A stretch of DNA of 64,000 bases from Lachnospiraceae bacterium. GTDB lineage: Bacteria > Bacillota > Clostridia > Lachnospirales > Lachnospiraceae. The stretch lies in contig JAEENL010000175.1 of the NCBI GenBank assembly GCA_016283775.1, positions 30,766 through 94,765 of the forward strand, read 5' to 3'. Positions 9,573-20,403 of this stretch are shown piece by piece (the stretch's first letter is position 1; every line of letters starts with the position of its first letter). The notes below the pieces were generated by a model, which saw only the letters and a program-made list of their open reading frames with translations, made no database searches and was not told the DNA's origin. The position numbers and the translations under genes are program-made.

Positions 9573-10711
9573 TCACTGACCTCCGTGTTGCGCTTGCTCT
9601 TTGCAAGCTTGATGGTGCGGATCCGCCCGGAATCCACAAGGAAATATCGGTTGTCTCCGCCGAAATATACCGTATCCAGCGTGCCGTCAAAGGTACCGCT
9701 GTATTTTAATGTCCCGTTTTTACGATAGATGTGTACTTTTCCCGGACTAATGAGCGCCGCTTCGCCGTTTGCGGCCTGCAGTACGTCATATTCCGGGACC
9801 TTTCTGATCGTGCCTTGTTTTTTGCCGTCTGTCCCGTAAAAAGTGAGGATGCGTTCGGAATCCTTTTCGGTAACGGTGCAGACACCCTCGTCAAACATCG
9901 AGAGGTCCACGATCGTGCCTTCGGGTTTTATGTCGCACAGGGCTTCGGGTATCTCTTCCATCCCGTAAAGGACAAAGCCGTCCTCGAGCGTGATCCCGAC
10001 TGTGTCGTTCCCAAGGAATTCCACGTCATAGACGAGTCTTCCCGTGTATTTTTTCTGTCCTACGATGTTGTCGATGAAATTCTTGCCGACACTCGCCATA
10101 TTGTAAAACGTGACCTTGCTCACGAGCTCGTCTTTGTCAAAGGAGATGCAGAGAGTCACAAGCTTTGTCCCGTCATCAGAAAGCGCGATGTCAACAGGAA
10201 AGCCGTCCTGCTTTGTGCTGGTCGCAAGCTCCACCCTGAGGCTGCCGCCTATGTCGTATACCTGGACAATGTCGGTATTTCCGCTGTCCATGAGCACGGC
10301 GGTCACACCCTGCTTTGCGACGGCGATGCGGCTGATGGGGTAGTTGGTGGTGTAACTTGTGTAGATGCCGCTCTCGGGGATCACATAAACGCTGGTGCCG
10401 TTTATATCGGCGATGGCGGAAACCTCGCCGCACGATACGACTTCAGGGTTGTCCAGGCTGAAGGCCGCTTCCCATATGAGGGAACCCGTTCCGTTTATGG
10501 CTCTGGCGCCGTTTATCGAACTCATCGCAAGGATGTTTGCGTCATTATGGCATTTCACGTCCGAGGAGAGCTTCATTTCACTGATGACCTCATAAGACGA
10601 ATAGGTGCCGTACAGCCTTTCTTTTATGTAGTGCCATGCGAAGGCGGCAAGCGTGCCTATGACCACGACCGCGATTATTATTTTTATAAGTGATCTGGTA
10701 CTTTCTTTCAT
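9569..10711 (-). CDS. Hypothetical membrane-anchored extracytoplasmic protein (beta-rich)
   Basis: ATG 10711 gives MKESTRSLIKIIIAVVVIGTLAAF (signal anchor). The rest is beta-strand-like with repeated G-T/S motifs. The family may be a DUF seen in Clostridia, but this is unverified. Its stop overlaps the start of the CvpA-like gene. Confidence 0.55.
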   Translation of the reverse strand: MKESTRSLIKIIIAVVVIGTLAAFAWHYIKERLYGTYSSYEVISEMKLSSDVKCHNDANILAMSSINGARAINGTGSLIWEAAFSLDNPEVVSCGEVSAIADINGTSVYVIPESGIYTSYTTNYPISRIAVAKQGVTAVLMDSGNTDIVQVYDIGGSLRVELATSTKQDGFPVDIALSDDGTKLVTLCISFDKDELVSKVTFYNMASVGKNFIDNIVGQKKYTGRLVYDVEFLGNDTVGITLEDGFVLYGMEEIPEALCDIKPEGTIVDLSMFDEGVCTVTEKDSERILTFYGTDGKKQGTIRKVPEYDVLQAANGEAALISPGKVHIYRKNGTLKYSGTFDGTLDTVYFGGDNRYFLVDSGRIRTIKLAKSKRNTEVSE

Positions 10712-10871
10712 ACGCCTGTTTTGTGTTAAGCCAATATTCCACATCATTTTAGCACTATGCGGCATCTTCGGCAAGATATTTTGGTTGCACTTGAGTTTTA
10801 AGGTGTTTTATGTTAAATTAATAGTTTGGACCATAAGGTCCTTGAGTTCAGTGATAAACAGGAAACATGTA

Positions 10872-12740
10872 ATGCCGAAGAGATTCGTGAAAACAGCATA
10901 TATTTGTCTTTTGGCTCTGTTTCTCACAGGCTGCAACGGAGAGGTTTTTTATGACGACCCCGTAAGACCTACCCCCGTAGCAACTTCCGGAATATCGGGA
11001 ACGGTGACCGGCAATCCCGGGAAAAAAGATCCGGACGCTACGAAAGCACCTGCGGTGACAACGCCCGATCCCGGAAAAAAGAGCGCACCTTACGGGATTC
11101 TTACAAGGATCACACATGAAGCGGGAACAAAGCTCACGCCCGAGGAGTTCATCTCAGGGTATGAGGGGACCGTCACGGTGCTCACCGCATTTTCGGAGGA
11201 AGATCTGCTGGCGGTGGGAGCGTCGTTTGCCGCGGCCATCGACTGTGACGGCAGAGAGGTCACGGTGATCGTTGACATTTCTGACAATGCCGCGCCTATT
11301 TTCAAGGGGATACAGGATATCGAGATAAACGAGGGCGACACGATAGCGTACAAAAAGGGCGTGTCAGCCTATGACAACGTTGACGGCGAAGTTTCGTTCT
11401 CTGTCGACAATTCCAATGTGGACACGGATAAAGCCGGGATATACACGGTCACATATTCTGCCACCGACAGAGCAGGAAACACGGCCGAAGTCACCGCAAA
11501 GGTGACCGTGAATGCCTTGCGTGACCAGCTCCAGATACTTATCGACGATAAGGCGGATGAGGTCATAAGGAGCGTTGTGACTGACAATATGACCAAACGC
11601 GAAAAGGCATATGCGGTCTTTGTATGGTGCCATACAAATCTCACTTATAAAGGTGAAGAACGGGACCTGACCTACGATGAAGCCGCCTACGCAGGGCTGT
11701 TTGACCATGCCGGCGACTGCTATGTTTCTTATGTGCTCCTCGATGTGCTCTACAGGAGAATGGGCTTTGAGACCATGATGGTAGAGCGTGTGGGGGGAAC
11801 GAGCGACCATTTCTGGAACTATGTAAACTACGGAGAGGGCTGGTATCACTGCGACTGCATAAAACGCCGCACCGGAAACAAGGCTTTTGACGACTACTGG
11901 TGCTTCATGCAGACAGACAGCCAGGTTGAAGGATACAACAAGCTCCGCGGCGATACGATGCCAAACTGCTACACCTATGACAAGTCAGCATTCCCGGAAT
12001 GTGACAAGTTTAAGATATATGACGGCAACACGCATGAGTTCATACTTGACAAGGAAGCACCCGTTATAAATGGTGCGATGGATCTTTTTATCGCGAGGGG
12101 AGAGACGGTCGCCTACAAGAAAAATATCAGGGTGACGGACAATTCCGGCGAGGATATCACGGTGCACGTTAAAAACAGCGGCGTGAACCTGAATGTGGTT
12201 GGCATATATCCTATCACCTATTACGCAGAGGACTCTTCCGGAAACAGATCGGAGGTATCGGTCAATCTGCATGTCTGTGAGCCATCGGCTGAGCTCGCTT
12301 ATGACATTGCCGATACGCTTCTCGCAAATATCACAAATGACAAAATGTCCCAGTATGACAAGGCAAAGGCGATCTATTTCTGGATCGCGTACCACATTGC
12401 CTACGTGGATGCGCCCACAGGTACGGATCCGCTTCTTGCGGCTTACGACGGACTCACAAAATACAAGGGTGACTGCTATGTTTACGCAAATGTGGCACAG
12501 CTCCTTCTCACACGGGCGGGTATCGAAAACATCATGATCGTGAAATACCCGGTCTATGATGAGGAGCATTTCTGGAGCATCGTAAACGTGGGAGACGGCT
12601 GGTATCATTTTGACAGCACGCCCTGGTGGGACGGAACGCAGATATTTATGTGGACCGAATCCCAGCTTGAGAAGTTTTCAAAGAGAAACGATATGTCTCA
12701 CGCATACGACAAGAGCCTGTATCCTGAAGTGGTGCAATAG
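10872..12740 (+). CDS. Lipoprotein with two tandem [Ig-like + transglutaminase-like cysteine peptidase] modules
   Basis: ATG 10872 gives a lipobox (LALFLTGCNG). Two Ig-like segments are present (NAAPIFKG...GIYTVTYSATDRAGN and KEAPVING...GIYPITYYAEDSSGN). Each is followed by a Cys-His-Asp core (GDCYVSY...DHFWNYV...WYHCD and GDCYVYA...EHFWSIV...WYHFD). Confidence 0.75.
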   Translation: MPKRFVKTAYICLLALFLTGCNGEVFYDDPVRPTPVATSGISGTVTGNPGKKDPDATKAPAVTTPDPGKKSAPYGILTRITHEAGTKLTPEEFISGYEGTVTVLTAFSEEDLLAVGASFAAAIDCDGREVTVIVDISDNAAPIFKGIQDIEINEGDTIAYKKGVSAYDNVDGEVSFSVDNSNVDTDKAGIYTVTYSATDRAGNTAEVTAKVTVNALRDQLQILIDDKADEVIRSVVTDNMTKREKAYAVFVWCHTNLTYKGEERDLTYDEAAYAGLFDHAGDCYVSYVLLDVLYRRMGFETMMVERVGGTSDHFWNYVNYGEGWYHCDCIKRRTGNKAFDDYWCFMQTDSQVEGYNKLRGDTMPNCYTYDKSAFPECDKFKIYDGNTHEFILDKEAPVINGAMDLFIARGETVAYKKNIRVTDNSGEDITVHVKNSGVNLNVVGIYPITYYAEDSSGNRSEVSVNLHVCEPSAELAYDIADTLLANITNDKMSQYDKAKAIYFWIAYHIAYVDAPTGTDPLLAAYDGLTKYKGDCYVYANVAQLLLTRAGIENIMIVKYPVYDEEHFWSIVNVGDGWYHFDSTPWWDGTQIFMWTESQLEKFSKRNDMSHAYDKSLYPEVVQ

Positions 12741-12762
12741 AGGATACGGCGGAGGCTTTATT

Positions 12763-13515
12763 TTGGAAATTCATTCGGAAAACAGAAAAATACTCGGCGT
12801 GATCGGAGGCCTCGGCCCCATGGCTTCGGCTTATTTCATGAGGCTTGTGACGGAAATGACCGATGCGAAGACCGACCAGGAACATATTGAGATATTGCTG
12901 CACAGCAAGCCGCAGCTGCCTGACCGCACAGGTTTTATCATCGGAGAGAGCAAGGAATCGCCACTGCCCGGCATGCTCGAGGCAGGACAGGGATTGAGGC
13001 GCTCAGGCGCGGACATCATCGCGATCCCGTGCGTTACAGCGCATTTCTTCCAAAAGACGCTTGAGGAAGAAATAGGGATTCCTGTGCTGAATGCGATAGA
13101 AGATGCCGCAGAAGTCCTAAAACAGGCGGGTGTGAAAACAGCAGGCATCATGGCGACCGACGGCACTGTAAAAAGCGAACTGTTCCCGAAGGTGTTTAAG
13201 TCTCACGGGCTGGAATGTGTGATCCCGAGTGCCGAAAGGCAGCGTGACGTGATGCATGTCATCTATCACAACGTCAAAGCCGGGATACCGATAGAAAAAG
13301 ACAGGTTCATGGGCATCACCCGCGAACTCTTTGACAAAGGCGCAGAGGCTGTGATACTGGGCTGCACGGAGCTTTCGATCATGAAGCGTGACAACCCGGA
13401 TATTTTGCAGTGGGGCGGCGCGCGGCACGGGTTTCTCGATATCCTTGAAGTGCTCGCGCAGAGCAGCGTGAGGAAATGCGGGAAGCTGAAAGCTGAGTAT
13501 GAAAAATTGATATAA
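12763..13515 (+). CDS. Aspartate racemase-type Asp/Glu racemase superfamily protein
   Basis: ILGVIGGLGPMAS, DQEHIEILLHS..LPDRT, and the two catalytic Cys contexts IPCVTAHFF and LGCTELS. The TTG start at 12763 lies 7 nt after GGAGG (12751-12755). The ATG at 12610 in the track would overlap the upstream gene. Confidence 0.8.
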   Translation: MEIHSENRKILGVIGGLGPMASAYFMRLVTEMTDAKTDQEHIEILLHSKPQLPDRTGFIIGESKESPLPGMLEAGQGLRRSGADIIAIPCVTAHFFQKTLEEEIGIPVLNAIEDAAEVLKQAGVKTAGIMATDGTVKSELFPKVFKSHGLECVIPSAERQRDVMHVIYHNVKAGIPIEKDRFMGITRELFDKGAEAVILGCTELSIMKRDNPDILQWGGARHGFLDILEVLAQSSVRKCGKLKAEYEKLI

Positions 13516-13532: not shown

Positions 13533-15053
13533 ATGCAAAACAATCTTTTGGATTATCTTTACGATATAGTGGACAGGGTACCGGACAAGACGGCGTTTTC
13601 AAACGGAACGGACAAGCTTTCGTTTAAGGAACTATACGAAGAGTGCGGCGCGGTCGCATCGGCTGTGGCTGAGCGCGGGATCTACAAGAAGCCTGTCGTG
13701 GTCTTTATGAAAAAAAGCCCCGCTGAGATCTCCGCATTTTTCGGAGTGATAAGAAGCGGTAACTATTATGTTCCGATAGACGAGGAAATGCCAAAGATCA
13801 GGGTCGACCTGATACTTGACAATGTGCAGACGGATCTTATCATCTGCGACGAGTCTACCATCGAGATCGCAAAGGGTTTTAAGTACAAATGCGAGCTTGC
13901 GCTCTATTCGGATCTCATAAAACACGAGACCGACAGCGAAAAGCTTAAGTTTATCTATGACCACCAGATAGACACGGATCCCATCTATATCGTGTTCACA
14001 TCAGGTTCCACAGGCATTCCCAAAGGCGTTGTGGCATGCCACAGGTCGGTCATCGACTATATCGAACAGCTTTCGGAAACTCTCGGGTTCAATGAGAACA
14101 CTGTTTTCGGAAACCAGTCGCCGCTTTACTTTGACGCATGCCTGAAAGAGGTATATCCGACACTTAAGTTCGGCGCGACCACATATCTCATCCCGCGCGA
14201 GCTTTTTATGATACCTGTGAAGCTTGTGGAATTTATCAATGAACATGAGATAAATACCATCTGCTGGGTCGTTTCCGCGCTCACCATGATCTCGGCGTTC
14301 GGCACTTTCAAAACGGTCGTGCCGCACACGCTCCGCACCATAGCGTTCGGAAGCGAGGTGTTCCCGATAAAGCAGTACAAGCTGTGGAAAGAAGCGCTTC
14401 CTGAAGTAAAGATGACAAATCTTTACGGACCCACGGAATGCACCGGCATGAGCTGCTTTTTCCATGTGCCCGAAAACTACGATCCGGAGGGACCCATCCC
14501 CATCGGAAGGCCCTTCAAAAACACAGAGATACTGCTCCTTGACGACAATGGCAGACTTGTGCCCGACGGGGAACAGGGAGAGATCTGCATAAGAGGTACC
14601 GCGCTCACTCTGGGCTATTACAACAATCCCGAGAAGACCGCCGAGTGCTTTGTACAAAATCCGCTAAACCACGTATATTCGGAGCTTATCTATAAGACCG
14701 GAGACATCGCAAAGCGCGACAAGGACGGAAATCTCATCTTTGTGTCCCGGAAAGACTATCAGATAAAGCACATGGGACACCGTATCGAACTCGGAGAGAT
14801 CGAGGCAAACGTTTCATCGATGGCCGGTATCCGCATGAATGCCTGCATCTATGACGAAGAAAAAGGAAAGATCGTGCTCTTTTACGTAGGAGACATGGAG
14901 AGCGCCGAATTAACTTCGGAACTAAAGGGGAGCCTTCCCAGATATATGCTCCCGAACCGTGTGATAAAGGTGGATTCACTGCCCCTCACACCCAACGGTA
15001 AACTTGACAGAAAGACACTGAAAGCCGACTACAAGAGTGGCGCGAGAGCCTGA
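13533..15053 (+). CDS. Stand-alone amino-acid adenylation enzyme, DltA-like carrier-protein ligase
   Basis: 506 aa with ANL core motifs IVFTSGSTGIPKG, YFDAC, NLYGPTECT, YKTGD, GRKDYQIKHMGHRIELGEIE and PNGKLDRK. The size and FDxx..xxYP context resemble DltA. Confidence 0.8.
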   Translation: MQNNLLDYLYDIVDRVPDKTAFSNGTDKLSFKELYEECGAVASAVAERGIYKKPVVVFMKKSPAEISAFFGVIRSGNYYVPIDEEMPKIRVDLILDNVQTDLIICDESTIEIAKGFKYKCELALYSDLIKHETDSEKLKFIYDHQIDTDPIYIVFTSGSTGIPKGVVACHRSVIDYIEQLSETLGFNENTVFGNQSPLYFDACLKEVYPTLKFGATTYLIPRELFMIPVKLVEFINEHEINTICWVVSALTMISAFGTFKTVVPHTLRTIAFGSEVFPIKQYKLWKEALPEVKMTNLYGPTECTGMSCFFHVPENYDPEGPIPIGRPFKNTEILLLDDNGRLVPDGEQGEICIRGTALTLGYYNNPEKTAECFVQNPLNHVYSELIYKTGDIAKRDKDGNLIFVSRKDYQIKHMGHRIELGEIEANVSSMAGIRMNACIYDEEKGKIVLFYVGDMESAELTSELKGSLPRYMLPNRVIKVDSLPLTPNGKLDRKTLKADYKSGARA

Positions 15054-15077: not shown

Positions 15078-16163
15078 ATGAAAAGTTGGATAAAGTGGAT
15101 CGTGACCGCAGCGGTGGTCATTCTGGTCCTTTGGTGCCTGCAGCGGCTTGTTATGCCCAAATATGCAAAGGGTATCGTTGAGGGCGCCTTCATAGCAGAA
15201 TATTACAAAGACAGACCCGACCATGATGTGATATTTGTGGGGGACTGCGAAGTGTATGAAAACTTCACTCCTGTGCTCCTGTGGCAGGAATACGGGATAA
15301 ACAGCTATATCCGCGGAAGCTCACAGCAGACGGTATGGCAGTCGTATTACCTTGTCGAGGACACCTTCAGGTATGAAAAGCCGGATGTCGTGATCTTTAA
15401 TGTCCTTTCGATGGAGTTTGACAAGCCCGAGGACGGCGGGAGCAACATGGAAGCATACAACCGCATGACCCTTGAGGGAATGAGATGGAGCATGTCAAAG
15501 GTAAAAGACATACAGGCTTCCATGGTAAAGGGCGAGAAGTTTTTGGATTATGTTTTTCCTATCCTCCGGTATCATTCGAGGATCACGGAGCTTACGGCAG
15601 ACGATCTTAAATACTGCTTTAAGACCGAGAAGGTCTCGCATAACGGCTATTATCTGAGAGTTGACGTGAAGCCCGCGGCAAACGTCCCGGGTGGGCGTAT
15701 CCTGTCCGATTACAGCTTCGGAGAGAATGCATATTCCTATCTCGACAAGATGACAAAGCTTTGCAAGGAAAACGATGTGGAGCTGATCCTCATAAAGGCG
15801 CCGAGCCTTTACCCTTACTGGTATCCCGAATGGGACGCTCAGATGGAGGAATACGCAGAAAAGCATGGCCTTGAATATATCAATTTTCTCGATCTTAAGG
15901 AAGAATGCGGCCTTGACTATACCACAGACACATATGACGCAGGTCTTCATCTGAACCTGAGCGGCGCGGAAAAGACAACACGCTGGCTGGGGGAATTTCT
16001 CAGCACCCAAAAAGGTCTCAAGGACCGCAGAGATGACGAAAAACTCTCTGCCGAGTGGAAACAAAAGATCGAATTTTACGAGAATGCTATAGAGGAACAA
16101 AAAAAGAAATACGGTATCACCGATTTTACAGGAGAGTACAGAAAAGATGAAGAAAACAGTTAA
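15078..16163 (+). CDS. Membrane-anchored SGNH/DltD-like protein (putative MBOAT partner)
   Basis: N-terminal TM (WIVTAAVVILVLWCL), a block-I-like VIFVGDCEVYENF and a C-terminal block-V-like YDAGLHLN. The call rests on its position in a Dlt-like cluster. Confidence 0.55.
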   Translation: MKSWIKWIVTAAVVILVLWCLQRLVMPKYAKGIVEGAFIAEYYKDRPDHDVIFVGDCEVYENFTPVLLWQEYGINSYIRGSSQQTVWQSYYLVEDTFRYEKPDVVIFNVLSMEFDKPEDGGSNMEAYNRMTLEGMRWSMSKVKDIQASMVKGEKFLDYVFPILRYHSRITELTADDLKYCFKTEKVSHNGYYLRVDVKPAANVPGGRILSDYSFGENAYSYLDKMTKLCKENDVELILIKAPSLYPYWYPEWDAQMEEYAEKHGLEYINFLDLKEECGLDYTTDTYDAGLHLNLSGAEKTTRWLGEFLSTQKGLKDRRDDEKLSAEWKQKIEFYENAIEEQKKKYGITDFTGEYRKDEENS

Positions 16164-16740
16164 GATCATGTGCATGGTGCTCGGAACGGTACTTTTTATG
16201 AGTTTTGCCGCATGCGGAAAAGAGCAGGAGAAAGAACCTGAAGATGTGAGCGTGATATGTCCCACTGCGGATCCCGCGGATCCTTCAGGCGTTACGGACG
16301 TGACCTGCGACCCCGTGACCATTGACACACCCCCGACAGCTGCGGGTTTTGTTTTTACCTATAACGGGGTTGATGTGCGTGTGGACGCGGCTGCTGCGGA
16401 CATCGTGGACAAGCTTGGCACTTATTCGTATTTTGAAGCACCGAGCTGCGCGTTCAACGGACTTGACAAGATCTATACATACACGAGTTTTGAGATAGAC
16501 ACATATCCCGTCGGCGATGCGGACTACATTTCCGCCATCGTTTTCAAGGATGATACCGTGGAGACCGCGGAAGGCGCCTGCATAGGAATGAAAAAGGAAA
16601 AGGTGGTCGAAAAGTACGGCACTCCCTCAGAAGAATCCGGAACGCTCTCGATCTACGAGAAGGATTGCATGCAGCTTCGCTTTATCTTTGATGAAGAGGG
16701 TTATGTGATATCGATCCAGTATCTCAGCAGCGTGGTGTGA
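16147..16740 (+). CDS. Hypothetical lipoprotein
   Basis: Lipobox MSFAACG followed by an acidic/Pro-rich linker and a ~130-aa globular domain. Overlaps the upstream gene by 17 nt. Confidence 0.6.
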   Translation: MKKTVKIMCMVLGTVLFMSFAACGKEQEKEPEDVSVICPTADPADPSGVTDVTCDPVTIDTPPTAAGFVFTYNGVDVRVDAAAADIVDKLGTYSYFEAPSCAFNGLDKIYTYTSFEIDTYPVGDADYISAIVFKDDTVETAEGACIGMKKEKVVEKYGTPSEESGTLSIYEKDCMQLRFIFDEEGYVISIQYLSSVV

Positions 16741-16798
16741 ACTACCAATGAACTGTTTATTAAGATTTTTAATAATGGTGGAAAGTTTTTTTGTTCAG

Positions 16799-16807
16799 TG
16801 ATATAAT
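16799..16807 (+). promoter_or_regulatory. Candidate extended -10 promoter (TGaTATAAT)
   Basis: TG at 16799-16800 and TATAAT at 16802-16807. There is only a weak -35 (TGGAAA, 16779-16784). Lies in a 343-nt non-coding gap. Confidence 0.4.
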
Positions 16808-16814
16808 ACAGACA

Positions 16815-17083
16815 ATCCTAGAGTGTTCGACACTCCTTGCAATTTTGAACCTACAAAACTTTAAACGGGATTCCTATATTGCGTGACGGATGTCAGGCCG
16901 CAACCTCATCGCCCGGATCATATCCGGCCGCAGCGGAAGGCAGCAAGTCAGGCTGCGGTCACCCACCTGGCTGATAGCTAGGAGTCAAAATGCGGGAAAC
17001 GGCATATCCGGGATTATTTTTGTACCCGAAATGGGATTCGGGCGGGTTGTGAAGGATTTGACTCAAGAAATAACAGGTTATCG
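16815..17083 (+). promoter_or_regulatory. Long structured 5' leader or unclassified cis-regulatory RNA candidate
   Basis: About 270 nt of GC-rich non-coding sequence between the candidate promoter and ATG 17084. Hairpins: 16821-26/16830-35, 16913-18/16922-27, 16928-34/16952-58 and 17025-30/17037-42. Duplicated GUCAGGC and GGCCGCA segments allow alternative pairing. Confidence 0.35.
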
Positions 17084-18568
17084 ATGAAAAGATTTATCTT
17101 CAGTTTAATATTATTGTCTCTTTTTTGTTTCGGGGCAGCGGCATGTTCTTTGAAAGCGCAGAACGATACGGGATTTTTGGGACCGGTGTGGACACTCACG
17201 CCCACTCCCACGCTCACGCCGACTCTGATGCCGACTCTTACGCCCACAACATCCCCCACTATGACACCGGTGCCTACGGAGACACCGACTCCGACGCCTA
17301 CTTTCGGGCCGGACTATGAACCGCCTGTCATCTCAGGCGTACAGCCTATCGTTGTCGCCACGGGAGGAACTGTGTCCTACAAGCGCGGCGTTGAGATCAC
17401 CGACAACTCGGGAGGAGACGTGGAACTCATCATCGACAATTCCACAGTCGACCTTTCAAAGCCCGGAGAATATGATATTTCCTACACCGCCATAGATCAC
17501 GCGGGAAACACTACGATCATCTTTTCCACGGTCACGGTCAAAGACGCGGATATCCTTATGAAAGAAACGGAAGCGAACCGTCTTGCGGATGAGGTCATAG
17601 CCGAAGTCATAAACGATGACATGACCGAGTGGCAGAAGATTTACAAGCTCTGGCAGTGGGTAAGAGGAAACGTGAGATACTCCTACACCACGGGAGACAT
17701 GACTTCGGAATACACCGGGGCTTACGAAGGACTTCACGACAGGATTGGCGACTGCTACAGCTTTTACGCAACATACAAGATACTCCTTGACAAAGCGGGA
17801 ATACAAAATTTAAAATGTACAAGGGTCGGGGGCGAGAGCGACCACTATTGGAACCTTGTGATGTATGAGGGAAAATGGTACCACTGCGATGCCAGCCCGA
17901 GGCGTCTTGAAGACCCGTTCAACACATTCCTGCAGACGGATCTCCAGATAAAGGCCTATACCGAGAGCTATCCGGAGAAGCCGAACTACTACACGATAGA
18001 CTGGGATGCCTATCCCGAAAGGGGCACTGTCCCGGTTTATGACGGCTGGACACACAAAAGATTAAAGTCCGGAGTGGTGCTTACAAAGTCAGCGCTTCTT
18101 GCAAAGATCGAGGAACTGAAGACAGAGTTCCCCGCAGGCACCTACTGGAACGGTGAGAACCTCGGCGTGACCGATGTGCCGTGCGAAAATACTCCGGATT
18201 ATGCGGGCTGCAACTACTATCACGGACCGTCAAGCCTGTGCTTCGAATCGCATGATGCGGGATGGCAGTGCCTTGGATTTGCCAGCCTTTTGAGCGACAA
18301 ATGCTTCGGAGAGGACACTTCCGCCTATATCGTACGTGATTACGACCAGGTGAGGATCGGTGACCAGGTGAGACTTTCGCCGAACGAAAACAGCCCTTAT
18401 CACAGCGCATTCATCATCGACAAGACGGACGAATACATCGTTGTCGCGGAGTGCAACAGGGATTTCAGGACCTGCCTCATCGAGTGGGGAAGAGTGATAC
18501 TAAAGAGCGAGCTCGACAACATGGAAGTGTGGTATATCAGCAGGAGCTGTGAGATCAAAGACAAATGA
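17084..18568 (+). CDS. Lipoprotein: Thr/Pro linker + Ig-like + transglutaminase-like core + C-terminal CHAP/NlpC-like papain-fold domain
   Basis: Lipobox FGAAAC and a TPTPTLTPT linker. Ig-like segment YEPPVISG...GEYDISYTAIDHAGN. Transglutaminase-like core GDCYSFY...DHYWNLV...WYHCD. The C-terminus has GWQCLGFAS (Cys) and PYHSAFII (His). Confidence 0.75.
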   Translation: MKRFIFSLILLSLFCFGAAACSLKAQNDTGFLGPVWTLTPTPTLTPTLMPTLTPTTSPTMTPVPTETPTPTPTFGPDYEPPVISGVQPIVVATGGTVSYKRGVEITDNSGGDVELIIDNSTVDLSKPGEYDISYTAIDHAGNTTIIFSTVTVKDADILMKETEANRLADEVIAEVINDDMTEWQKIYKLWQWVRGNVRYSYTTGDMTSEYTGAYEGLHDRIGDCYSFYATYKILLDKAGIQNLKCTRVGGESDHYWNLVMYEGKWYHCDASPRRLEDPFNTFLQTDLQIKAYTESYPEKPNYYTIDWDAYPERGTVPVYDGWTHKRLKSGVVLTKSALLAKIEELKTEFPAGTYWNGENLGVTDVPCENTPDYAGCNYYHGPSSLCFESHDAGWQCLGFASLLSDKCFGEDTSAYIVRDYDQVRIGDQVRLSPNENSPYHSAFIIDKTDEYIVVAECNRDFRTCLIEWGRVILKSELDNMEVWYISRSCEIKDK

Positions 18569-18603: not shown

Positions 18604-18837
18604 ATGGAAAGACTGCTTGAAATATTGTCGGAACTTCATCCCGACATTGATTTTGAAACCGAGGAGCATCTGATCGACGACGTTATCATCGATTCTTTTG
18701 ACATCGTCACATTGATATCCGAGATACAGGAAGAGTTTGACGTGACTATCAGCGCCAAAGACATCATCCCGGAAAATTTCAATTCCGCAAAAGCAATCTG
18801 GGAGCTTATCGAACGTATTGAGGAAGAGGAAGCCTGA
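18604..18837 (+). CDS. Small carrier protein, DltC-like (phosphopantetheine attachment IIDSFDIV)
   Basis: 77 aa and acidic. The DSF serine context and following helix (IVTLISEIQEEFDV) resemble D-alanyl carrier protein. AAGGAG SD is present. Confidence 0.8.
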   Translation: MERLLEILSELHPDIDFETEEHLIDDVIIDSFDIVTLISEIQEEFDVTISAKDIIPENFNSAKAIWELIERIEEEEA

Positions 18838-18843
18838 TCTTTT

Positions 18844-20403
18844 ATGTTGTTCACCTCATATGAGTTCCTTGGCTTTGTTCTGATACTGGGGCTTTTATAT
18901 TACATCCTTCCGAAAAAGGCAAAATGGCCTCTGCTGCTCATTGCGAGCCTGGTGTTTTATGCGTTTTCGGGAGTGAAGGCGCTCATCTTTGTGGGAATCA
19001 CCGCGTTCACGGTATATGGTGCCGGAATGCTGATCGACAGGAACCGCGCCGCTGTGGATGCCTATATCAAGGCAAACAAGGACACACTTTCAAAAGAAGA
19101 AAAAAAGGCATACAAGGCAAAAGCGGCACGCATACGCACCGTGTATCTGCTGCTTTGCATGTGCCTTAATCTCGGAATTCTCGTTGCGCTGAAATTTGAG
19201 TTTGTTTCCCTTCTGCAGCCGATGGGAATTTCATTTTATACCCTGAGAGCAGTGGGATATCTTGTGGATATCCACAGGGGAAGCTATAAGGCGGAGAGGA
19301 ATCCATTGAGGTTCCTGCTTTTCATTTCGTTCTTCCCCATAGTGATACAGGGACCTTTGAGCAATTACGGGGATATCGCTCCGACTTTGTTTGAGGGGAA
19401 CGCCTTTGACAAAAAGAACGTGAGCTTTGGCTTACAGCGCATGCTCTGGGGCTTTTTTAAAAAGCTTGTGGTGGCTGACCGCGTGATGAAGGCTGTGATG
19501 GTCTATATCGGTGATCCCGTGACTTACCGCGGAGCATATGCGCTCATGGGAATGCTTCTCTACACGGTTGAGCTCTATGCCGATTTCACGGGAGGCATCG
19601 ACATCACGATTGGTGTTTCGGAAATGCTTGGGATCAAGGTTTCCGAAAACTTTGAAAGACCGTATTTCTCCACCTCCCTTAAAGAATATTGGAGACGCTG
19701 GCACATCACGATGTGCGAATGGTTCAAGAACTATGTGTTTTTCCCGGTTTCCGTGTCAAAGCCGATGCAAAAGCTTTTGAAGGTCACACGGAAAGTCTTT
19801 GGGGAACGTGTCGGGAAAAGGATCCCGGTATATGTGTCATCGTTTATCGTGTGGCTCCTTACGGGACTCTGGCACGGACCGACATGGAATTTTGTCGTAT
19901 GGGGGCTTTTGAACTGGCTGATCCTCATGGTATCAGAGGAGTTTGAACCCTTGTACGAAAAGTTCCACAAGCGGTTCGGATGGACCAATGCGGCGGGCTA
20001 CAAGGTTTTCATGATGATAAGGACATTCATCCTGATCACTGTATTAAATCTGTTTGACTGCTTTGTGAATGTAAAAACGACGCTCACTTCGATCGCATCG
20101 GTCGTGACCGCGGGTAATTACAAGGGTGCGCTTGCGGGCGCATACAAGGCTTTCGGCCTTTCGGCGGCGGATCTTGTGATACTTGGCATAAGCATAGCGA
20201 TCATGTTTACGGTGAGCATCGTTCAGGAAAAAATGTCAGGAAACGGGCAGACAAGCGGAAACAGCAAAGTAAGAGAAAGACTTTCGGCGCTTCCTTTCCC
20301 TGTGCAGGCATGCATCTGGACCGCGCTCTTTGCGGCAGTGCTGCTTTTCGGAGCATATGGAGTGGGATACGATCAGAGTCAGTTTATATATAACAAGTTT
20401 TAA
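18844..20403 (+). CDS. MBOAT family O-acyltransferase, DltB/AlgI-like
   Basis: Polytopic 519-aa ORF with the conserved His region EYWRRWHITMCEWFKNYVFFPV and WHGPTWNF. Confidence 0.85.
   Translation: MLFTSYEFLGFVLILGLLYYILPKKAKWPLLLIASLVFYAFSGVKALIFVGITAFTVYGAGMLIDRNRAAVDAYIKANKDTLSKEEKKAYKAKAARIRTVYLLLCMCLNLGILVALKFEFVSLLQPMGISFYTLRAVGYLVDIHRGSYKAERNPLRFLLFISFFPIVIQGPLSNYGDIAPTLFEGNAFDKKNVSFGLQRMLWGFFKKLVVADRVMKAVMVYIGDPVTYRGAYALMGMLLYTVELYADFTGGIDITIGVSEMLGIKVSENFERPYFSTSLKEYWRRWHITMCEWFKNYVFFPVSVSKPMQKLLKVTRKVFGERVGKRIPVYVSSFIVWLLTGLWHGPTWNFVVWGLLNWLILMVSEEFEPLYEKFHKRFGWTNAAGYKVFMMIRTFILITVLNLFDCFVNVKTTLTSIASVVTAGNYKGALAGAYKAFGLSAADLVILGISIAIMFTVSIVQEKMSGNGQTSGNSKVRERLSALPFPVQACIWTALFAAVLLFGAYGVGYDQSQFIYNKF

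Follow-up and report, generated by a model that had tools for sequence, protein, structure and literature searches.

The window studied here, a stretch of 64,000 nucleotides from a Lachnospiraceae bacterium (GenBank assembly GCA_016283775.1, contig JAEENL010000175.1, positions 30,766 to 94,765 of the forward strand), carries the gene of a DltA-like adenylation enzyme within a conserved gene cluster. Our analysis suggests that this adenylase is the stand-alone ligase of a Dlt-like envelope aminoacylation system, and that its pocket has probably been rebuilt for an acidic D-amino acid, D-aspartate being the most likely one. An acidic substrate other than alanine is the firmest part of this proposal and appears likely, because the predicted pocket is charged and enlarged and because a racemase of the Asp/Glu superfamily is tightly linked to the gene. 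D-aspartate specifically is put forward with more hesitation, as a favoured but by no means assured candidate.

The adenylation enzyme and its binding pocket

13533..15053, + strand: DltA-like stand-alone adenylation enzyme / carrier-protein ligase, 506 aa, PF00501 (226 bits) and PF13193

Domain and NCBIfam matches bear out the original prediction, made from the letters of the window, of a DltA-like adenylation enzyme in this frame, and the translation shows all core motifs of an adenylation (A) domain, namely TSGSTGIPKG, NLYGPTE, YKTGD, PNGKLDR and the KDYQIKHMGHRIELGEIE block. Public records label the protein only as "amino acid adenylation domain-containing protein".

In DltA, the methyl group of the D-alanyl moiety points into a small hydrophobic cavity, whose walls are Leu198, Met201 and Cys269 in B. 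cereus numbering. Cys269, which clashes with L-alanine, gates D against L, an enantioselectivity that is relaxed in the C269A mutant; the amino group is bound by Asp197, the carboxylate by Lys492 (PMC8972799, PMC4176424, PMC11253843; the role of Lys492 from PMC4176424). The pocket of the window enzyme was mapped with MAFFT, in alignments free of gaps across the A4 and A5 regions, onto a reference DltA, a protein from a phylum-sample genome that is 99% identical to the B. cereus DltA of PDB 3FCC/3DHV and sets the crystal numbering. The GrsA positions given below rest on this DltA mapping together with control codes from nonribosomal peptide synthetases (NRPSs).

14133..14147 (codons of the A4-core helix), + strand: D201, binder of the alpha-amino group; B. 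cereus DltA D197, GrsA position 235
within 14133..14147, + strand: A202; DltA L198, GrsA position 236
within 14133..14147, + strand: K205; DltA M201, GrsA position 239
14262..14264, + strand: C244; DltA T240, GrsA position 278
within 14343..14351, + strand: A271; DltA L267, GrsA position 299
within 14343..14351, + strand: F272; DltA F268
within 14343..14351, + strand: G273; gatekeeper C269 of DltA, GrsA position 301
14421..14450 (A5 core NLYGPTECTGM), + strand: L297; DltA T293, GrsA position 322
14421..14450 (A5 core), + strand: G305; DltA V301, GrsA position 330
14421..14450 (A5 core), + strand: M306; DltA A302, GrsA position 331
15000..15002, + strand: K490, the A10 catalytic lysine; DltA K492, GrsA K517

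The ten-residue code read from these columns is DAKCAGLGMK, as against DLM[TV]LCTVAK in canonical DltAs. The columns were controlled on 937 A domains from 150 large NRPSs, taken from a search of 1.8 billion proteins that returned only giant multi-module NRPSs because scores were summed over domains, and they return textbook codes (DFWNIGMVHK, DVWHFSLVDK, DAWFLGNVVK, DAFWLGGTFK, DLFNNALTYK and DLTKIGEVGK). Ser248 was also tried as position 278, by analogy to "PPT", and rejected, since the controls then gave DFWSIGMVHK instead of DFWNIGMVHK; residue 244 restores the codes.

All three walls of the D-alanine methyl cavity are replaced in the window enzyme (Leu198 by Ala202, Met201 by Lys205 and Cys269 by Gly273), Val301 gives way to Gly305 as a fourth change, and the anchoring residues of DltA are kept (D201 for Asp197, K490 for Lys492). 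Because three walls and Val301 are replaced, the cavity is predicted to be larger than that of DltA and positively charged. In an AlphaFold2 model of the adenylase (30 sequences in the alignment; mean predicted local distance difference test score 87.5), D201 and K205 lie one turn apart on a predicted helix (200-213) and a predicted strand (269-273) holds A271 and G273, a geometry expected of pocket-facing residues.

The original prediction had aligned two short stretches by hand. Both are present, YFDACLKEVYP at residues 199-209 (positions 14127-14159) and IAFGSEVFP at residues 270-278 (positions 14340-14366), and the Lys that it placed at the 239-equivalent is found there by MAFFT as well, K205 aligning with Met201 of B. 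cereus DltA in the columns validated on the NRPS domains. Its claim that Phe replaces the gatekeeper Cys was a miscount. In every alignment Cys269 falls on Gly273 and Phe272 on the conserved Phe268 of DltA, and even the two strings on which the claim was built (IAFGSEVFP and FMFCGEVLP) contradict it when read without gaps. The real change is Cys to Gly, which would remove the steric D/L gate and enlarge the pocket rather than fill it.

At least 577 relatives of the adenylase were found in a scan of species-representative genomes, and our figures for orthologues refer to the best 80 of them, 63-84% identical, which are nearly all from Lachnospiraceae. Cultured bacteria among them are Agathobacter ruminis (JK623, WP_031542063.1), Acetatifactor aquisgranensis (DSM 110981, WP_251207899.1) and strain NC2008. 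The whole code is identical in 76 of the 80, and K205, C244 and G273 are each present in every one. Lys at position 239 is rare in NRPSs (20 of 937 domains, 2%, eight of these 20 having DAKD[IL]G[IV]VDK-like codes), and canonical DltAs carry Met, Leu or Thr there; set against these frequencies, its presence in 80 of 80 orthologues argues that it is more than chance. In the Glu-activating initiation module of surfactin, mutating K239 moves selectivity towards Gln, according to a review (PMC11355689). We took the role of K239 from that source, as the exact string DAKDLGVVDK, which the original prediction had given as a Glu code, gave no match in our literature search.

The cassette would work like Dlt, yet its adenylase appears to lie outside the DltA equivalog. 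It passes the NCBIfam model of amino acid adenylation domains (TIGR01733; 333.4 bits, cut-off 317.4) and fails the DltA equivalog model TIGR01734, on which it reaches 288.8 bits, about half of the cut-off of 559.85; B. cereus DltA, taken as control, scores 711 bits. Against solved structures its scores are nearly equal (GrsA 225 bits, LgrA A2 214 bits, DltA 214 bits), and the core of the AlphaFold2 model superposes at 1.8-2.0 Å on LgrA, TycA, PheA (1AMU) and DltA (7R27, 3E7W), with Z of 48.5-51 overall and 48.5-48.9 for the DltA structures. A maximum-likelihood tree, obtained by a quick search only, resolves three groups: canonical DltA (value 100), NRPS A domains (99) and the Dlt-like adenylases of Lachnospiraceae (100); the window clade falls inside the last of these and does not group with canonical DltA. 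Since score, pocket residues and clade all set it apart, we do not regard the adenylase as a DltA equivalog.

That the enzyme is nevertheless the Lachnospiraceae version of DltA, still activating D-alanine, or else glycine or D-serine, seems to us highly improbable. The cluster does hold a full DltA/B/C/D-like set, only 7 of the 251 genera sampled from Lachnospiraceae have a canonical DltA above the equivalog cut-off, none was found in the window's genome, and AlmE shows that promiscuity is possible in DltA relatives (PMC11253843). Against this stand not only the half-cut-off score and the place outside the DltA clade but also the replacement of every residue of the methyl cavity, with a charged Lys put where DltA is hydrophobic, and a linked racemase that is of the aspartate type and not an alanine racemase. 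Moreover, one genome (G201) has a full orthologue alongside a near-canonical DltA, which at 539.7 bits narrowly misses the cut-off, and this co-occurrence suggests that the two have non-redundant roles; another (G361) has a DltA over the cut-off and a partial orthologue.

The racemase and the identity of the substrate

12763..13515, + strand: pyridoxal phosphate (PLP)-independent aspartate-type racemase, 250 aa, TTG start, GGAGG at 12751

The second line of evidence is the gene next door, which ends 17 nt before the start of the adenylase gene and was rightly named an aspartate-type racemase in the original prediction. Its product passes TIGR00035 with 206.3 bits (cut-off 93.1), and its nearest structure is the aspartate racemase of P. 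horikoshii (1JFL; E 4e-49, 170 bits), scores against YgeA, EcL-DER and McyF being 54-59 bits. The cysteines of its PCVTAH and GCTEL motifs align with the catalytic Cys82 and Cys194 of 1JFL, the motifs are kept in 76 orthologous loci, and the protein is the only member of its family found in the genome. Such a racemase gene stands just upstream of the adenylase gene in about 75 of the 80 orthologue loci.

D-aspartate is favoured over D-glutamate because the enzyme nearest to the racemase, that of P. horikoshii, is specific for Asp. The supply of D-amino acids also bears on this choice. Canonical dlt operons have no racemase, since D-alanine is already made for peptidoglycan. Of 80 Lachnospiraceae genomes sampled, 71 have the glutamate racemase MurI (TIGR00067), among them all 12 that also appear in the orthologue list (E < 1e-190); D-glutamate would thus already be supplied in carriers of the cassette, and a racemase dedicated to the cassette points to a D-amino acid with no other source in the cell. 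MurI was not found with TIGR00067 in the window's own genome, a 93%-complete metagenome-assembled genome, and its absence there is probably due to an assembly gap or to incompleteness. The idea that the cluster racemase is the glutamate racemase of the cell was considered and rejected on the same MurI counts. An AsnB-type amidotransferase, encoded in about a quarter of the loci, was also counted in favour of D-aspartate.

If Lys205 paired with a gamma-carboxylate, as Lys239 does in NRPSs, and the racemase acted on Glu, the substrate would be D-glutamate or a longer acidic amino acid. This we consider unlikely, even though Ala236, Lys239 and Gly301 are common to the window code and to the Glu-type DAKD[IL]G[IV]VDK codes, the three shrunken pocket residues free more room than Asp needs, and K239 is tied to Glu recognition (PMC11355689). 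The asp_race family, too, includes Asp/Glu racemases, and 5HQT is among the matches of the racemase; however, its 170 bits against the Asp-specific enzyme compare with 54 bits against the E. coli Asp/Glu racemase. The window code lacks the acidic residues (D278 and D331) that Glu-type codes have, MurI already provides D-glutamate in cluster-carrying genomes, and AsnB-type partners fit Asp better.

Little credence is given to the loading of an L-amino acid (L-Asp or L-Glu), with the D/L gate gone and the racemase serving another purpose or acting after loading. The replacement of Cys269 by Gly273 points that way, as the C269A change already relaxes the D-selectivity of B. cereus DltA (PMC4176424), and a sister clade of adenylases appears, by analogy with BtrK, to use carrier-bound L-Glu. 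Against this, the racemase gene adjoins the adenylase gene in about 75 of the 80 loci, at a distance of 17 nt in the window, which would make little sense if its product did not feed the ligase.

Several observations weigh against D-aspartate or against the proposal as a whole. With Gly at 301 the sole known D/L gate would be lost, so that the enantiomer would not be readable from the pocket, and the volume freed by the changes of Leu to Ala, Cys to Gly and Val to Gly would also leave room for Glu or a larger residue. In NRPSs, the partner of Lys239 is Glu, whose side chain is longer, and Asp codes use Lys278 or His322. Because canonical DltA is so rare in the family, the system could in principle replace D-alanylation. 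The racemase family includes broad-spectrum enzymes, for example RacX and YgeA (PMC12838360). Finally, on the cysteate-racemase (CuyB) model, which has a cut-off of 190 bits, the score of the racemase is 189-190 bits.

This last score bears on another anionic or polar substrate, such as D-cysteate, a beta-substituted aspartate, D-Asn or D-Gln, to which we assign a low probability. Lys205 would also pair with a sulfonate, and the AsnB-type enzyme could make an amide before loading. Yet an identity as cysteate racemase was rated unlikely, since the CuyB model is unspecific and passes its cut-off in 1 of 14 ordinary control genomes; the cassette, present in about one in eight Lachnospiraceae genera sampled, is more widespread than expected of a sulfonate speciality, and asnB is found in only 20 of the 80 loci.

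The suggestion, already made in the original prediction, of a non-alanine and possibly acidic substrate is thus retained, with its Cys-to-Phe argument removed. We infer the substrate instead from the cavity changes, the code kept in 76 of 80 orthologues, the linkage of the racemase and the literature on K239 (PMC11355689), and among acidic substrates D-aspartate remains our preferred candidate.

Genes of the cassette and a proposed route

The other genes of the cassette in the window are:

10653..12740, + strand: Ig-like and transglutaminase-core surface protein, directly upstream of the racemase gene (PF01841, PF16403)
15078..16163, + strand: membrane-anchored SGNH/DltD-like protein, 361 aa, weak PF13472 and DUF1574 matches
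16147..16740, + strand: conserved lipoprotein, 197 aa, no family, lipobox-like N-terminus
17084..18568, + strand: second Ig-like and transglutaminase-core protein (domain match)
18604..18837, + strand: DltC-like carrier protein, 77 aa, Ser in IDSFD, PF00550 24.2 bits (cut-off 20.8)
18844..20403, + strand: DltB-like MBOAT, 519 aa, WHITMCEW histidine motif, PF03062 65.8 bits
20505..22343, + strand: AsnB-type glutamine amidotransferase, TIGR01536 451 bits, in a subset of loci

The adenylase is co-encoded with DltC-, DltB- and DltD-like genes, the DltB-like protein being below its own cut-off (149 bits on TIGR04091, cut-off 375) and the DltD-like protein having weak SGNH matches only. The WH histidine motif of the MBOAT is kept in orthologous loci. 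In the SGNH/DltD-like protein, GDC replaces the GDS nucleophile motif in 64 of 66 orthologues, and a GLH block is also kept. The AsnB-type gene starts 101 nt after the MBOAT gene; it is one of three full-length copies in this 3-Mb genome (the others on contigs C49 and C119), so the enzyme need not be the housekeeping copy. A gap of 343 nt (16741-17083) separates the lipoprotein gene from the second transglutaminase-like gene, and its sole open reading frame (16890-17087; 65 aa, Arg-rich) has no family match and is not gene-like.

Locus content was compared by tblastn and clustering of open reading frames over 81 loci (the 80 orthologue loci and the window), with these counts:

Aspartate-type racemase: 76 of 81 loci
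Ig-like / transglutaminase-core protein: 74 of 81 loci
MBOAT: 74 of 81 loci
Anchored SGNH-like protein: 65 of 81 loci
197-aa lipoprotein: 62 of 81 loci
AsnB-type amidotransferase within the cluster: 20 of 81 loci

A homologue of the transglutaminase-core protein precedes the racemase gene in 74 of the 81, and a DltC-like carrier is encoded in most related loci, beside the adenylase or the MBOAT gene. The commonest gene order is transglutaminase-like protein, racemase, adenylase, carrier, MBOAT, SGNH-like protein and lipoprotein, from which the window deviates in having the carrier and MBOAT genes further downstream.

These genes might act together in the following way. The PLP-independent racemase would, by homology, make the D-amino acid, which the ligase would adenylate; as in DltA, the alpha-amino group would be bound by Asp201 and the carboxylate by Lys490, two residues that are conserved. 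The side-chain carboxylate would pair with Lys205 in the cavity widened by Ala202, Gly273 and Gly305. By analogy with DltB and DltD, the acyl group may then be transferred to the phosphopantetheine arm of the 77-aa DltC-like carrier and passed across the membrane by the MBOAT to the anchored SGNH-like protein, with its Cys nucleophile motif, and from there to a surface acceptor. The transglutaminase-like proteins and the lipoprotein are included here as conserved, presumed partners. More speculatively, where the AsnB-type amidotransferase is encoded it could amidate the free carboxylate.

Related cassettes, known systems and significance

In a family sample of 250 genera, about 32 have an orthologue at 55% identity or more, and about 45 others have paralogues of 37-47% identity. 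Dlt-like variants are far commoner in this Lachnospiraceae sample than true D-alanylation genes. All 20 paralogue loci studied (L104-L123, from other Lachnospiraceae genomes) adjoin MBOAT, carrier or SGNH genes, and their codes differ, at least eight codes being seen in Lachnospiraceae Dlt-like adenylases. The codes of paralogues were:

13 loci: DVK[IT][MIL]S[LV]CNK
3 loci (L111, L116, L120): SM.., without the alpha-amino Asp
1 locus each: DNLFLCLDVK, DAVRIGNGVK, DAKDMLLGDK, DVHFFAMHVK and IARGCSQASK

The lack of the Asp that binds the alpha-amino group hints at non-amino-acid substrates in the SM.. paralogues. Tailoring enzymes are also encoded beside some paralogues: a GNAT (L106, L110), a formyltransferase (L109), an M15 peptidase (L123), and an aminoglycoside-N-acetyltransferase-like protein together with a radical SAM/SPASM protein (L112).

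The DVK clade is usually paired with a fold-III PLP decarboxylase, whose best matches are diaminopimelate decarboxylase, the L-glutamyl-acyl carrier protein (ACP) decarboxylase BtrK and the exosortase-A-associated decarboxylase family. A second Dlt-like cluster of the window's own genome, on contig C126 (L103:7704-11585, minus strand), belongs to this clade. In it, an SGNH-like protein is followed by a 505-aa adenylase (code DVKTMSLCNK, with Lys at 239), a fold-III PLP decarboxylase and a 73-aa DltC-like carrier; by analogy, Glu may be loaded here and turned into 4-aminobutyryl by decarboxylation on the carrier. Two separate clades thus combine a basic residue 239 with a linked enzyme of acidic-amino-acid metabolism, and the six paralogues without such a residue have neither a racemase nor a decarboxylase partner. 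As the loci are kin, this pattern, counted in favour of an acidic substrate, is suggestive rather than statistical.

Taken further, it might be, and we say so tentatively, that Lachnospiraceae have radiated Dlt-like "envelope acylation" cassettes in the style of one-module NRPSs, each clade with its own code and its own supply or tailoring enzyme (aspartate-type racemase, BtrK-like carrier-linked decarboxylase, GNAT, formyltransferase or radical-SAM enzyme). The product of the window cassette would then be a D-aspartyl ester on a surface polymer, amidated in some species. Such an ester would be a zwitterionic or anionic decoration, of a charge logic opposite to that of D-alanylation.

Among known systems, DltXABCD is the closest in architecture. 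Its DltA (B. cereus 3DHV/3FCC, B. subtilis 3E7W) has the same fold (Z about 49, core root-mean-square deviation about 2 Å), is a stand-alone A domain of about 500 aa, and shares with the window enzyme the alpha-amino Asp, the A10 Lys and a co-encoded small carrier, MBOAT and anchored SGNH-like protein. However, identity is only about 30%, and the equivalog score, the clade and the code all differ, as described above. The window cluster is also unlike dlt in its dedicated aspartate-type racemase, its transglutaminase-like proteins and lipoprotein and its gene order, and its DltD-like protein has Cys where DltD has the Ser nucleophile. The nearest precedent for a retuned DltA relative is AlmE, the glycine-activating member of the Vibrio cholerae AlmE-AlmF-AlmG system that puts glycine onto lipid A; AlmE was retuned through changes at the L198 and C269 equivalents (PMC11253843). 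In AlmE the pocket is narrowed to suit Gly, and a lipid A acyltransferase takes over from it, whereas the window pocket would be widened and charged and has MBOAT/DltD-type partners. Glu-activating NRPS A domains, such as that of the surfactin initiation module, share Asp235, Ala236, Lys239, Gly301 and Lys517 with the window enzyme, but they work in multimodular synthetases on L-Glu and have Asp at 278 and 331, where the stand-alone enzyme of this envelope operon has Cys and Met.

Lactococci and enterococci have a system of aspartate racemase, D-aspartate ligase and AsnH that gives D-Asp (D-Asn) cross-bridges in peptidoglycan. Like the window locus, it combines an aspartate racemase supplying envelope D-Asp with an AsnB-family amidotransferase, which there acts on envelope D-Asp. 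Unlike the window locus, it relies on a cytoplasmic ATP-grasp ligase acting onto a peptidoglycan precursor and is without A domain, carrier and MBOAT. The BtrI/BtrJ/BtrK system and the exosortase-A-associated trio of ligase, ACP and decarboxylase (TIGR03098/TIGR03099) resemble the sister cluster on C126, with its Lys239 adenylase, carrier and BtrK-like decarboxylase; the window enzyme differs from them in having a racemase as partner and not a decarboxylase. No description of a racemase-linked, or of an acidic or otherwise non-alanine, Dlt-like system was found in our literature search, which left most subscription journals uncovered.

In the textbook view, Firmicutes adjust their surface charge, their resistance to cationic peptides and their recognition by the immune system through Dlt D-alanylation, which is treated as specific for D-alanine. 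The bacteria that carry the cassette are dominant gut and rumen commensals, mostly without canonical DltA. If our proposal is right, the adenylase would be the first natural enzyme of the DltA fold to select a charged D-amino acid, which would be useful to A-domain engineering. The loading of an acidic D-amino acid would, moreover, mean that major microbiota members have an envelope chemistry so far unrecognised, with possible effects on host sensing, phage adsorption and cation binding.

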